Assembly (NCBI GenBank): GCA_034668505.1
Contig: JAXDPD010000003.1
Coordinates: 5,441 to 69,440, forward strand
Reading direction: 5' to 3'
DNA from: Sphingomonadales bacterium
Lineage (GTDB): Bacteria; Pseudomonadota; Alphaproteobacteria; Sphingomonadales; Sphingomonadaceae
DNA length: 64,000 nucleotides
The notes under the pieces: generated by a model
The model's database searches: none
Told to the model about the DNA's origin: nothing
What the model saw: only the letters and a program-made list of their open reading frames with translations
Made by a program: the position numbers and the translations under genes
Shown: piece by piece, positions 5,605 to 55,823 of the stretch
Layout: every line of letters starts with the position of its first letter
Position numbering within the stretch: position 1 is the stretch's first letter

Positions 5605-6107
5605 TGGCCGCTTCCTTAAATCCTCCCTGGAACGGGGAGGGGGACCGCACGAAATGCGGTGGAGGGGGTTCAGAGACCCGCGCCGAGCCCCCTCCACCAC
5701 GCGCTGCGCGCGCGGTCCCCCTCCCCGTCCCGGGGAGGATCCAAGGCTTCACCCTTGTGGAATTGATGGTGGTGATCGTCATCCTCGGGCTGCTGGCGAC
5801 GATCGTGCTGATCAACGTCATGCCGGCCACCGGCCGCGCCAAGCTCACCGCCGCCCATAGCAGCGTCAAGCAGCTCGAGCAGGCGATCGACATGTACAAT
5901 CTCGACAATGGCCGCCTGCCGACCCGCCAGGAAGGGCTGCAGGCTCTGGTCGCGAGCCGGATCCTGCGGCGGCTCGACCCCGATCCCTGGGGCAATGCCT
6001 TCGTCTACAGGATTCCGGGCCGGAACGGGCGCCCCTATGACGTGCTCTCCATGGGCGCCGACGGCCGCGAGGGCGGCACCGAGGACAATGCAGACATCTA
6101 TCCCTGA
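5604..6107 (+). CDS. gspG: Major pseudopilin with an extended (48-aa) prepilin leader
   Basis: G|FTLVELMVVIVILGLL cleavage motif at 5748; DPWGN...SMGADGREGG. ATG 5604 overlaps the gspF TGA and follows GGAGGA. No other in-frame ATG/GTG/TTG occurs before the cleavage site. Confidence 0.9.
   Translation: MAASLNPPWNGEGDRTKCGGGGSETRAEPPPPRAARAVPLPVPGRIQGFTLVELMVVIVILGLLATIVLINVMPATGRAKLTAAHSSVKQLEQAIDMYNLDNGRLPTRQEGLQALVASRILRRLDPDPWGNAFVYRIPGRNGRPYDVLSMGADGREGGTEDNADIYP
5620..5740. repeat. REP-like palindromic element, family C (long form), inside the gspG leader
   Basis: Arms 5620-5648 and 5712-5740 are reverse complements at 27/29 positions; inner arms GGTGGAGGGG/CCCCTCCACC. Confidence 0.9.
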
Positions 6108-10734: not shown

Positions 10735-13700
10735 ATGAGCGCCGCCTGGACCTTCTCGATCGACCGCGGCGGCACCTTCACCGACATCGTCGCCCGCGCC
10801 CCCGGCGGCGCGACGATCGTCCGCAAGCTGCTCTCGGACAATCCCGGGCGCTATGACGACGCCGCGGTCGCTGGCATCGCCGCGATCCTCGCCGAGGCCC
10901 GGGCCAAGGGGCTTTCAACCGAGGTCGGCGCGGTCAAGATGGGGACGACGGTCGCGACCAACGCCCTCCTCGAGCGCAAGGGCGAACGGGTGGCGCTGGC
11001 GATCACCGCCGGGCTCGGCGACGCGCTCAGGATCGGCTACCAGGCGCGGCCCGACATCTTCGCGCGCCATATCGTCCTGCCGGAGCCGCTCTACGGGATC
11101 GTGATCGAAATCGACGAAAGGGTGACGGCGGCGGGCGCGGTGCTTCGCCCGCTCGACGGCGAGGCCGCGCGCGCCGGGCTCCAGGCGGCGTTCGACCAGG
11201 GCTATCGCGCGCTCGCCATCGTGCTGATGCACGGCTGGCGCTGGACCGCGCACGAGGCCGCGCTGGCCGGAATGGCGCGGGCGATCGGCTTCACCCAGAT
11301 TTCCGCGAGCCACCAGGTCGAGCCCCTGATCAAGCTGATCGGCCGCGGCGACACCGCCGTGGTCGACGCCTATCTCTCGCCGGTTTTGCGGCTGTACGTC
11401 GACAAGGTGGTCAAAGGGCTGAACTGCACAGACTCGTTCGTCCCGAGCGAAGTCGAGGGGCGCGGCACCGACTCCGAACGCCCCTCGACTTCGCTCGGGA
11501 CGAACGGGAGTGAGAATCCAGGACAGCGCCTGTTCTTCATGCAGTCGAACGGCGGGCTCACCGACGCGGGCCGCTTCCGGGGCAAGGACGCCATTCTCTC
11601 CGGGCCGGCGGGCGGCATCGTCGGCATGGCGCGGACGGCGGCGGAGGCGGGCTTCGGCCAGGTCATCGGCTTCGACATGGGCGGCACCTCGACCGACGTC
11701 TCGCATTTCGCCGGGCGCTACGAGCGGACCAGCGAGCGCGCCGTCGCCGGCGTGCGCGTGCGCGCGCCGATGCTGGAAATCCACACCGTGGCGGCGGGCG
11801 GCGGCTCGGTCTGCGCGTTCGACGGCCGCCGCTTCCGGGTCGGGCCGGACAGCGCCGGGGCGGTGCCCGGCCCGGCCTGCTACCGGCGCGGCGGGCCGCT
11901 GACGGTGACCGACTGCAACGTCGTGCTCGGCAAGATCCGGCCCGATCATTTCCCCCGCGTCTTCGGGGCCGGTGGCGACCAGCCGATCGATGCCGAGGCT
12001 TCGTTCGCCCGCTGCAAGGAGATCGCCGGTCTGGCGGGCAAGAGCGCGCGCGACGTGGCCGAGGGCTTCATCCGCATCGCGGTCGACAACATGGCCAATG
12101 CGATCAAGCAGATCTCGATCGCGCGCGGCCACGACGTCACCCGCTACACCTTGCAATGTTTCGGCGGCGCGGGCGGCCAGCACGCCTGCCTGGTCGCCGA
12201 CGCGCTCGGCATTGGGCGGGTGATGATCCATCCGCTCGCCGGCGTGCTCAGCGCCTACGGCATGGGGCTGGCGGACATGGTCGAACTGCGCCAGCGCTCG
12301 GTGGCTGGCGGGGATCTGGAGGCGATCCTGGCCGCGCTCGAAGCCGAGGCCCGCGCCGGGCTGGCGGGGCAGGGGGTCGAGGATCCGGAGATCCTGCGGC
12401 GCGCGGCCCTGCGCTACGACGGCAGCGATTCCAGCCTCGAAGTGCCGGTCTCCGATCATATGCGCGCGGATTTCGAGGCCGCGCACAAGCAGCGCTTCGG
12501 CTTCACCGCGCCGGAGACGGCGGTGATGGTCGAGACCGCGATCGTGGAGGCGGTGGGGAAGGGACAGGAAGAAACCACGAACTCGTTCGTCCCGAGCGAA
12601 GTCGAGGGGCGTTCTGACTCGGTGCCGCGCCCCTCGGCTTCGCTCGGGACGAACGATTCTTTGCCTGTTACGGATCGATCACTGCTGAAGGCAGGCGACA
12701 CCATCCCCGGCCCGGCCCTCGTCATCGATCCCTCCGCCACCACCGTCGTCGAGCCCGGCTGGCAGGCGCAGGTGGATGCACTCGGCAACCTCATCCTCAC
12801 CCGCGCGACCCCGCGCGCCGCCGCCGCGGCGGGCGCCGCGGTCGATCCGGTCATGCTCGAGGTCATGGCGAACCTGTTCATGGCGATCGCCGAGGAGATG
12901 GGGGTGGCGCTGCAGAACACCGCCTCGTCGGTCAACATCAAGGAACGGCTCGATTTCTCCTGCGCGCTGTTCGACGGGGACGGCGACCTCGTCGCCAACG
13001 CGCCGCATATCCCGGTCCATCTCGGCTCGATGGGCGATTCGATCCGCACGATCATCGCGGCGCGGGGCGAGGGACGCGACGGGCGCGGGATGAAGCCCGG
13101 CGACGTCTACGTGCTGAACGCGCCCTATCGCGGCGGCACCCATTTGCCGGACATCACCGTGATCATGCCGGTCTTCGCCGACGACGCCGATGCTGCACCG
13201 GCCTGGTACGTCGCCGCGCGCGGCCACCATGCCGATATCGGCGGCATCGCGCCGGGATCGATGCCGCCCGACAGCCGCTCCGTCCATGACGAGGGCGTGC
13301 TGATCGACAATATGCTGCTCGTCGATGCGGGCCGCTTCCTCGAGGCGGAGATGCGGGCGCTGCTCGACGCGGGCGAGTGGCCGGCGCGCAATCCGGACCG
13401 CAACATCGCCGACCTGAAGGCCCAGATCGCCGCCTGCGCGCGCGGCGCGAACGAGCTCCGGCGCGTCTCCGGCGACTACGGCCGCGCCGCGATCGACGCT
13501 TATATGAGCCACGTCATGGCCTATGCCGAGGAAGCGGTGCGGCGGCTGATCGGGCGGCTGAGCGACGGCGCCTTCAGCTATGAGATGGACAACGGCGCCC
13601 ATGTCTCCGTCTCGGTGACGGTCGATCGCGCGGCGCGCGCGGCGACCGTCGACTTCGCCGGCACCAGCAAGCAGCAGGACGACAATTTCAACGCGCCTTA

Positions 13701-14385
13701 TTCGATCTGCCGGGCGGCGACGCTCTACGTCTTCCGCACTTTGGTCGACGATCCCATCCCCTTGAACGACGGCTGCATGCGGCCGATCACGCTCGCCGTG
13801 CCCGAAGGCTCGATGCTCAATCCGCGCTATCCGGCCGCGGTGGTGGCGGGCAATGTCGAGACCAGCCAGGTCGTCACCGACTGCCTGTTCGCGGCGATGG
13901 GCGCGCTGGCGCCGAGCCAGGGGACGATGAACAATTTCACCTTCGGCAACGAAGCCTATCAATATTATGAGACGATCGCGGGCGGCGCCGGGGCCGGCCC
14001 GACCTTCGACGGAGCGAGCGCGGTCCAGACCCACATGACCAACTCCCGGCTCACCGATCCCGAGATATTGGAGACGCGCTTTCCGGTGATCCTCGAACGC
14101 TTCGCGATCCGGCGCGGCTCGGGCGGGGAAGGGGCCCACCGGGGCGGCGACGGCGTCGAGCGCCGCATCCTCTTCCTCGAGCCGATGCAGGCGAGCATCC
14201 TCTCCAACCGCAGGCGGGTGGCGCCGCGCGGGATCGAGGGCGGGGGAGGTGCGAAGGCGGGGGTGAACCGGGTGGTGCGCGCTAACGGTGCGGCAGAGGT
14301 CTTGTCGGCGACCGCGTCGGCGGACATGCAGGCGGGGGACACCTTCGTGATCGAGACGCCTGGGGGAGGGGGATTCGGACAATGA
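10735..14385 (+). CDS. Fused hydantoinase A/B-type 5-oxoprolinase (ATP-hydrolysing) carrying two in-frame palindrome insertions
   Basis: [77 protein letters not shown]. Confidence 0.92.
11435..11506. repeat. REP-like palindrome, family B, in frame in oxoprolinase (copy 1)
   Basis: Perfect 28-bp inverted arms 11435-11462/11479-11506 with a 16-nt loop; encodes FVPSEVEGR...RPSTSLGTN. Confidence 0.92.
12584..12655. repeat. REP-like palindrome, family B, in frame in oxoprolinase (copy 2, opposite orientation)
   Basis: 28-bp arms with one mismatch; its loop matches the reverse complement of the copy-1 loop at 14/16. Confidence 0.92.
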
Positions 14386-55741: not shown

Positions 55742-55823
55742 CCGTTCGCCCTGAGCCTGTGGAAGGGCTTTCCTTCTCACTGCGCAAGAAAGGAGAGGGC
55801 TTCGACAGGCTCAGCCCGAACGG
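55742..55823. repeat. REP-like palindrome, family B variant, intergenic
   Basis: CCGTTCGCCCTGAGCCTGTGGAAGGGC ... GGCTTCGACAGGCTCAGCCCGAACGG. Confidence 0.85.

Follow-up and report, generated by a model that had tools for sequence, protein, structure and literature searches.

Palindromic repeats that lie in frame within bacterial protein-coding genes are well documented. The Rickettsia palindromic elements (RPEs) are in-frame palindromic repeats in genes (Ogata 2000, 2002, as summarised in PMC10969869), and intragenic repetitive extragenic palindromic (REP) sequences of the GTAG and CGTC types, sometimes found twice in one open reading frame (ORF), have been suggested to lie in flexible linkers (Di Nocera 2013, PMC3733652). 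In REPs of the CGTC type, an 8-9-bp stem is combined with a 4-5-nt loop and a CCA tail (PMC3733652), and other repeats fused to ORFs have also been described (Delihas 2011, PMC3184786). What moves such in-frame palindromes, and why they settle where they do, have been standing questions since the RPEs. SsnA is a nuclease that cuts single-stranded DNA (ssDNA) in a site-specific manner and is flanked by its own hairpin repeats in the layout NTS-ssnA-NTS (Chenal et al. 2025, PMC11893778); the word "intragenic" is absent from the main text of that paper, and in-frame coding copies are not its topic. Here, we describe two copies of a palindromic repeat, called family A, within the gene for a fused hydantoinase-type enzyme of a Sphingomonadales bacterium (GenBank assembly GCA_034668505.1). 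The gene lies in a stretch of 64,000 nt of contig JAXDPD010000003.1 (positions 5,441 to 69,440 of the forward strand), which was analysed as a whole and is called the window; window coordinates count from its first base. This genome is designated G000, the G and L numbers are labels of genomes and orthologues in the comparison sets, and the C numbers are contigs of G000. We consider, with a probability of about 0.8, that the two copies are selfish hairpin repeats that are translated as disordered loop and linker peptides and are tolerated by a functional enzyme.

The host gene and the two copies have the following positions in the window.

10735-14385, plus strand: host gene, a fused Hydant_A_N / Hydantoinase_A / Hydantoinase_B enzyme of 1216 aa (ORF, translation and Pfam)
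11435-11506, plus strand: family-A palindrome copy 1, 72 nt, with arms at 11435-11462 and 11479-11506 and the loop at 11463-11478; residues 234-258
12584-12655, plus strand: family-A palindrome copy 2, 72 nt, with arms at 12584-12611 and 12628-12655 and the loop at 12612-12627; residues 617-641, in the HyuA/HyuB linker

The positions of copies 1 and 2 in the host gene are called site 1 and site 2, respectively, site 2 being the linker between the A and B halves. A reading made from the sequence alone (the sequence-only reading) had reported two 72-nt palindromes with 28-nt arms and nearly reverse-complementary loops, both in the same open frame and encoding near-identical peptides, and the coordinates, the arm pairing and the translation of the ORF confirmed this description. 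The arms of copy 1 are complementary at 28/28 positions around the loop CGGCACCGACTCCGAA. Those of copy 2 are complementary at 27/28 positions around the loop TTCTGACTCGGTGCCG, and the sole mismatch forms a G-U pair on the sense RNA. The arm, CGTTCGTCCCGAGCGAAGTCGAGGGGCG, gave a pattern with four matches in the window and none in 100 shuffles. The starts of the copies are 1149 nt (383 codons) apart, and therefore both are in the same phase of the ORF, where they encode peptides of the type FVPSEVEGR...RPS[T/A]SLGTN. When reverse-complemented, loop 2 is identical to loop 1 at 14/16 positions, i.e., the loop of copy 2 is flipped relative to that of copy 1. Because reverse-complementing the element changes only its loop, nearly the same peptide is obtained from "both orientations", and the orientation of a copy is set by the loop alone. 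All three frames of the element are open, and every family-A copy seen within this gene is read in the acidic, Ser/Thr/Gly/Pro-rich frame, the alternatives being basic (RSSRAKSRG... and VRPERSRGA...). This choice of frame is consistent with selection on the peptide, a phase determined by the site being an alternative. The predicted RNA hairpins have energies of -72.1 kcal/mol (z -11.4) for copy 1 and -67.4 kcal/mol (z -8.5) for copy 2. We also observed that the copies at 11435-11506 and 12584-12655 are both direct and inverted repeats of each other, so that recombination could excise 383 codons with the frame preserved or leave the intervening segment inverted.

For the host protein, Pfam lists three hydantoinase domains only, namely Hydant_A_N, Hydantoinase_A and Hydantoinase_B (E 5e-49, 3.5e-103 and 1.4e-196, respectively), and the closest relative in the PDB is the N-methylhydantoinase 7hk5. 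The name 5-oxoprolinase that the sequence-only reading had given to the host holds at the level of the family but not for the substrate. Because no NCBIfam equivalog reached its cut-off with this protein, the substrate assignment was dropped, and the host is called here an oxoprolinase/hydantoinase-family enzyme, not a proven 5-oxoprolinase. At a dS of ~0.36, the dN/dS of the gene was 0.13-0.14 both with G044, a carrier of the site-1 insert, and with L021, in which this insert is missing. The host gene is intact and under purifying selection, and the enzyme itself appears ordinary and functional.

At site 1, the gene was aligned at the DNA level with the empty-site orthologues L021, L022, L093 and L005.

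11425-11526, plus strand: site-1 inserted block, comprising the palindrome and imperfect outer extensions

This block measures 102 nt in G000 and 9 nt in L021, the nearest relative with an empty site (89% nucleotide identity), a net gain of 93 nt or 31 codons. The left extension is similar to the CACCAAAGGCCTC sequence beside intergenic family-A copies, and such copies are also flanked by the outer extensions. Site 1, which follows helix 201-234, is empty in 15 of the 18 same-genus orthologues of the first set, as well as in L021, L022 and L093, and the empty site reads AG[IL]G/S-x-G-x-RLFF in most same-genus and all distant orthologues. At site 2, distant orthologues have a native conserved segment of ~50 aa, whereas the linker of the Allosphingosinicella clade is shorter and hypervariable; for this reason, the suggestion of the sequence-only reading that copy 2 replaced native sequence is partly right. 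The clade is indeed short of ~14 aa of native sequence. Site 2 of the relatives holds palindromes of other families, and the element replaced or followed by copy 2 was therefore most likely one of this kind. The inserted segments are absent from distant and most close orthologues and are not conserved. An AlphaFold2 model of residues 1-1200, calculated from an alignment of 81 sequences, had a mean predicted local distance difference test score (pLDDT) of 88.2 and a predicted template modelling score of 0.90. The only segments with pLDDT <50 were 234-259 and 622-640, both of which are coil and coincide with the inserts (234-258 and 617-641). In this prediction, the inserts occupy a loop and a linker compatible with the fold. 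These results show that the inserts are lineage-specific and lie at two positions that tolerate extra peptide, and the empty sites and the low-pLDDT coil support the earlier proposal that a family of palindromic elements is adding peptide at permissive loops.

Two observations concern the sites in more remote sequences. In L001-L026 (Allosphingosinicella and close relatives), the linker after ETAIVEA has ~14 residues fewer than in the distant fused orthologues L027-L100, and the missing residues are the ...V-x-M-F/Y-x-G-G-x-W-x-x-T... strand region between the A and B halves. At site 1, lineage-specific insertions of 10-40 aa are present in the unrelated L068, L085, L087, L092 and L098 (betaproteobacterial and cyanobacterial metagenome-assembled genomes), and the site-1 loop seems to be generally permissive.

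We then placed the states of both sites on a maximum-likelihood tree of the orthologues in which the insert columns were masked. G000, G044 and L021 form a well-supported trio (support 100/99), and this trio and the next outgroup, L022, carry the following elements.

G000: site 1, family A; site 2, family A
G044: site 1, family A; site 2, family B
L021: site 1, empty; site 2, family C'
L022: site 1, empty; site 2, family B

Here, family A is the FVPSEVEG type, family B is defined by TCCTCCCC..GGGGAGGGGGACC..GGTGGAGGGG, and family C is the CCGGCGAAGGCCGG type. Site 1 is also filled by family-A-type elements in two other clades, namely G020 and L023/G128/G074/G125. The latter four share a nested variant of ~110 nt, and a decayed remnant and a 2-aa scar occur at site 1 in G013 and G007, the relatives of G020. 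At site 2, a strong palindrome of family A, B or C is present in about 20 of the 26 orthologues with ≥72% identity; the site is devoid of palindromes in six close orthologues. Sister taxa frequently differ at this site (family A is found in L004 and L006, and family B in their respective sisters L007 and L008), and in two Sphingomonas metagenome-assembled genomes outside the genus, family B occupies site 2 while their sisters have nothing there. Thus, family A and other palindrome families have repeatedly come to occupy these two positions in related species.

Family A is not confined to the host gene. About ten further copies of 76-78 nt, apparently intergenic, were found in G000, and within the genus the repeat is present in 34 of 61 genomes, with 0-133 arm matches per genome and up to ~66 copies. 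The existence of other genomic copies, on which the proposal of a mobile family depended, is therefore well established. The element at 55742 to which the sequence-only reading had pointed as a relative is real and intergenic, but it belongs to a related yet different family (~18/27 arm identity); the same-family copies are those elsewhere in the genome. Typical copies of family A are 76-78 nt long with loops of 20-22 nt. When 15 copies with perfect core arms were sampled from other genomes, 14 were complete, 13 of these 14 look intergenic, and only the copy in the oxoprolinase gene of G044 was 72 nt long. The three copies found of the 72-nt variant with a 16-nt loop (two in G000, one in G044) all lie in this gene, and the site-2 loop of G000 is the exact reverse complement of the site-1 loop of G044. 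On these two grounds, copy 2 most likely descended from the lineage of the site-1 copy. That one 3.65-kb gene in a genome of 3.78 Mb should hold two of the roughly ten copies is far more than chance would give.

The arms stay almost unchanged between species. Between G000 and G044, whose orthologous copy is also 72 nt long, the site-1 arms are identical at 56/56 positions despite the dS of 0.36 for the gene, and the loop codons immediately adjacent to the element have diverged with indels. The arms of G020 are identical at 55/56 positions, and the same arm sequence occurs without a mismatch in many species. A DNA-level process keeps the arms constant, by re-copying, gene conversion or recognition constraints. 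A single arm folded no better than shuffled sequences (z 0.37 and 1.6), so the arm was rejected as an autonomous REP hairpin, and a weak CCC...GGG stem around its conserved GAGC-N-TCGA core is possible, in analogy to the repeats beside related nuclease genes of other alphaproteobacteria described below. [quoted passage not shown]

A longer form of family A was identified on another contig of G000.

C63:23336-23682: family-A cassette (arm, GIY-YIG gene, arm), in which the 291-nt "loop" is the gene interior

This cassette of ~0.35 kb carries a gene for a small single-domain GIY-YIG protein (PF01541, E 5.8e-14), the last codons of which run into the right arm (...PPHE outside the arm, RPSTSLGTN within it). 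Intact orthologues of the protein have a core of ~95 residues, and, compared with G044, G070, G049 and G007, the G000 gene lacks 5 nt, which shifts the frame. In all nine genus genomes that contain the gene or an orthologue with at least 67% identity (G000 included), it lies between family-A arms. Five aligned cassette loci have the same internal layout, and the outer flanks also match between G000 and G044. All nine gene-bearing genomes had at least 13 arm matches, and none of the 42 genomes with fewer than 10 matches holds the gene (Fisher p 5.3e-6), which shows that the presence of the GIY-YIG gene tracks that of the repeat across the genus. Furthermore, the loop of the mini-elements (CTGGCACGG...CATCACGxG) corresponds to the two ends of the cassette interior, as would be expected if these elements had arisen by internal deletion. 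A third, solo family-A arm follows the cassette (layout C63:23336-23758), and the gene immediately downstream of this arm has an N-terminus that looks DnaG primase-like.

Four other small GIY-YIG genes were found in G000, as listed below; those on C6, C12 and C20 are paralogues of the cassette gene.

C6:14482-14694: GIY-YIG gene flanked by family E, the type at window position 55742 and in a MiaB-like gene
C12:60039-60260: GIY-YIG gene flanked by GTGCTCCTGCGAAAGCAGGAGCCCAG (family C', the type in site 2 of L021)
C20:1950-2171: GIY-YIG gene flanked by CGTCATTCCCGCGAAAGCGGGAATCC (family D, NTS-like), in an SsnA-like layout
C31:2284-2478: small GIY-YIG gene, no flanking repeat found

The family-D repeat fits the NTS/SRM consensus CGTCATTCCCGCGMAVGCGGGAATCYRG, and family A does not. 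The partners of families A and E represent a second protein type, 39% identical to the family-D partner, and the A/E-type partner is much closer to the UPF0213 structures 1zg2 and 1ywl (E 1.7e-18 vs ~1e-6 for the family-D partner). A homologue of this second type was present in 14 of 200 sampled genomes of other alphaproteobacteria, and 7 of 15 such loci were flanked by inverted repeats (L187, L188, L191, L193, L194, L195 and L201). Five of these seven carry CCTCATCCTGAGCTTGTCGAAGGATGAGG, and L188 and L191 carry related sequences; the CCTCATCCTGAGCTTGTCGAAGGATGAGG motif has the GAGC-N-TCGA core in common with families A and E. Sequence comparison thus suggests a class-wide pairing of second-type GIY-YIG genes with common "GAGC...TCGAAGG" repeats. 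A literature search on UPF0213/YhbQ jointly with GIY-YIG found no paper.

The sequence-only reading had spoken of a REP/MITE family, and this can be refined: family A is tied to GIY-YIG, not to a REP-associated tyrosine transposase (RAYT). G000 has four PF01797 (Y1_Tnp, RAYT-type) genes, and an association of family A with RAYTs was rejected because none of the four is flanked by family A. The two genes on C76 are flanked by other palindromes (the GGGGACA type and others), and no palindromes were found beside the Y1_Tnp genes on C74 and C4.

C76:8581-8901 and C76:17226-17549: RAYT-like Y1_Tnp genes with GGGGACACACAC / GGGGACAGTTA-type palindromes nearby, among others

Palindromes of the other families were also found in the window and in further genes of the genome. 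Two lie in the window.

5620-5742, plus strand: family-B composite palindrome (TCCTCCC..GGGGAGGGGGACC..GGTGGAGGGG / CCCCTCCACC..GGTCCCCCTCCCC..GGGGAGGA) at the 5' end of the gspG reading frame
55742-55823, no strand assigned: family-E-type palindrome (CCGTTCGCCCTGAGCCTGTGGAAGGGC ...), intergenic, ~25 nt upstream of a minus-strand start codon

Family B, found at the start of gspG, is the family that occupies site 2 in most relatives and the linkers of RNase R and CoaBC in G000. When G000 was screened for strong palindromes in a continuous frame with high G+C at third codon positions, followed by a Pfam search of the matches, at least six more genes with in-frame palindromes were obtained, five with the palindrome between Pfam domains and one (TruB) with it inside TruB_N.

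C23:11829-11951: RNase R, family B, between CSD2 and RNB
C88:16569-16687: CoaBC, family B, between the Flavoprotein and DFP domains
C88:68987-69046: SucB E2, family C, between the lipoyl and E3-binding domains
C55:393-485: MiaB/MtaB-like enzyme, family E, between UPF0004 and Radical_SAM
C43:59205-59286: TruB, family D, within the TruB_N domain
C76:15110-15181: phage terminase large subunit, another type whose palindrome begins GGGGACACTTAC, between the N and C domains

The CoaBC linker is empty in most relatives, carries different families in G000 and G015, and is also longer in G005, G007 and G029.

The following account would explain these observations. Family A is probably a mobile, non-autonomous palindromic repeat, two copies of which landed in the fused HyuA/HyuB gene. 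Its 72-77-nt elements would be internal-deletion (MITE-like) derivatives of the GIY-YIG cassette, and the nuclease may copy or homogenise them in trans by acting on single-stranded hairpin DNA, as Ssn does with NTS/SRM; we put the odds of such a role at roughly even. Selection would retain only insertions of 3n bases that are in a benign frame at a disordered site, a filter that would yield "slots". Copy 2, from the site-1 lineage, would have replaced an earlier element in the linker, and with the nuclease frameshifted, the G000 copies may now be immobile passengers.

Several points weigh against this account. The mobility and the nuclease activity of family A are predictions, and the translation of the inserts is read from the open frame. 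The cognate nuclease gene is frameshifted in G000, unless this is an assembly error, and if the frameshift is real, the copies in this genome may be stranded. Several genomes rich in family A have only paralogues of ~58% identity and no close orthologue of the gene. Perfect identity of the arms could come from gene conversion instead of re-copying. Part of the drop in pLDDT at the inserts would be expected in any case, since most rows of the alignment are gapped there. Finally, no target-site duplication was recognisable when filled and empty versions of site 1 were compared, and the variable flanks prevent the insertion points from being located to the exact nucleotide.

Among the rival explanations, a spread of the inserts across species, either through homologous recombination of gene fragments or through gene conversion from other copies in the genome, would need no repeated insertion at the same site. 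The site-1 copies of G000/G044 and of G020 have similar loops and a near-identical left extension, GCCCAA(G/A)CCT, and the arms are identical across species that differ by ~20% elsewhere, as such an exchange would predict. However, the left extension belongs to the element, as intergenic copies have it too, and the loop length varies by clade (16 nt, 19 nt and nested ~50 nt). Moreover, in sliding-window identities, the nearest relative never switches beside either site, and G000 stays closest to G044 and L021 to within ~90 nt of the inserts. With no sign of it in these windows, the import of insert-bearing segments was set aside as an explanation, and we regard it as unlikely. The hairpins might instead be selected cis-elements, such as sites of ribosome pausing between domains, RNase III or stability determinants, or attenuators, with the peptide as a by-product. 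Such a function would explain why ~20 of the 26 close orthologues retain a very stable palindrome at site 2 although the families differ, why the arms of G000 and G044 are unchanged when their immediate flanks have strongly diverged, and why the lone substitution in the arms of copy 2 retains a pair on the sense strand. On the other hand, the six close orthologues without a site-2 palindrome, and the majority without one at site 1, are equally conserved, and the same families occur both in many genes without any relation to each other and between genes. For 26 in-gene elements, the folding energies of the sense and antisense strands did not differ (13 vs 12, Wilcoxon p 0.44), and selection on mRNA structure acting through a strand bias of hairpin stability was therefore rejected. 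No terminator-like site or promoter was called at the inserts, and a role as an intrinsic terminator or promoter was likewise dropped. We therefore judge a selected cis-function to be quite improbable.

The remaining two explanations are very hard to reconcile with the data. An assembly or chimera artefact is conceivable in a repeat-rich draft genome of 91 contigs, some of which (C8 and C39) end in family-A copies, but both copies lie within unique, collinear coding sequence with the frame exactly kept, and the independent assemblies of G044, G020, L023, G128, G074 and G125 share the element at the same site. Very stable hairpins inside an ORF could also suggest that the inserts are removed before the mature protein is formed, by translational bypassing, RNA excision or intein-like splicing. 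However, both inserts, like all orthologous and analogous ones, leave the frame open and lengthen the gene by a multiple of three bases, which is the signature of selection on read-through translation; furthermore, no stop codon lies in frame, unlike in known bypass sites, and Pfam gave no intein or intron match. Both explanations seem to us scarcely credible, and selfish repeats translated as tolerated loop and linker peptides remain our preferred explanation.

A wider interpretation of the nuclease/repeat pairs is possible, and we offer it tentatively since it appears to us more doubtful than probable. UPF0213-like GIY-YIG genes between inverted "GAGC-N4/5-TCGA" arms might constitute a second, undescribed Ssn-like nuclease/repeat class that is widespread in Alphaproteobacteria and whose coding-competent miniature hairpins cycle through fixed linker slots. 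A resident ssDNA hairpin would then be the landing or cleavage site for the next element, hence the replacement of families in place and the within-gene hops of a frame-compatible variant (site 1 to site 2). If this were true, such nucleases would be a general driver of linker evolution, and the long-missing enzyme for coding palindromes of the RPE/CGTC type would have a name. The genus offers a natural experiment, with repeat families each paired with their own small GIY-YIG gene and related genomes that either have or lack each pair. In one conserved enzyme, two slots have undergone many rounds of filling, emptying and refilling, and the CoaBC slot behaves likewise. With these features, the proposed link between an Ssn-type ssDNA nuclease and coding palindromes is directly testable in the laboratory, and they point to a concrete way in which interdomain linkers are lengthened and remodelled by selfish DNA.

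Compared with known systems, family A resembles the RPEs and intragenic REPs in that palindromes lie in frame in conserved, unrelated genes, sometimes twice per ORF, and add 20-45 residues in linkers or loops of a gene that stays functional, with no transposase of their own evident. In contrast, the host here belongs to a free-living sphingomonad genus, family A is one long hairpin with 28-bp arms instead of an 8-9-bp REP stem or a 100-150-bp RPE, family A and other families refill the same two sites across the genus, and a candidate partner enzyme was found. When compared with the published description of the CGTC/GTAG repeats, family A falls outside them, as its arm does not fold as a unit with an 8-9-bp stem. 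The gene-bearing form is MITE-like in that a longer element with the same ends exists, and it differs from MITEs in that its gene is no known transposase. No target-site duplication was recognisable among the variable flanks. With the REPIN/RAYT system and MITEs, family A shares a hairpin-forming inverted doublet, a single-copy partner gene whose flanks match between G000 and G044 and whose internal layout is common to five genomes, and short derivatives that greatly outnumber the gene-bearing form; unlike in REPIN/RAYT, the partner is a GIY-YIG nuclease and not a Y1 (IS200/IS605-type) transposase. The likeness to Ssn includes a single-domain GIY-YIG gene of ~95 aa with its own repeat on both sides, dispersal of the repeat in tens to hundreds of copies, co-occurrence of gene and repeat across genomes, and several nuclease/repeat pairs in one genome, of which one (family D) is NTS-like. 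It differs from Ssn in that family A departs from the NTS consensus, its arms alone are not significant hairpins, its gene lies inside one long palindrome, gene-less miniature copies exist, and the predicted nuclease is nearer to UPF0213 (1zg2) than the family-D partner is. The core finding is thus a further instance of a well-documented phenomenon, RPE-like with an Ssn-like partner. Beyond the literature examined, our analysis traces family A to a palindrome-bounded, UPF0213-like GIY-YIG cassette with miniature derivatives, and adds several nuclease/repeat pairs in one genome that each contribute coding insertions, defined slots with documented turnover across a genus, and arms that are frozen against a dS of 0.36.

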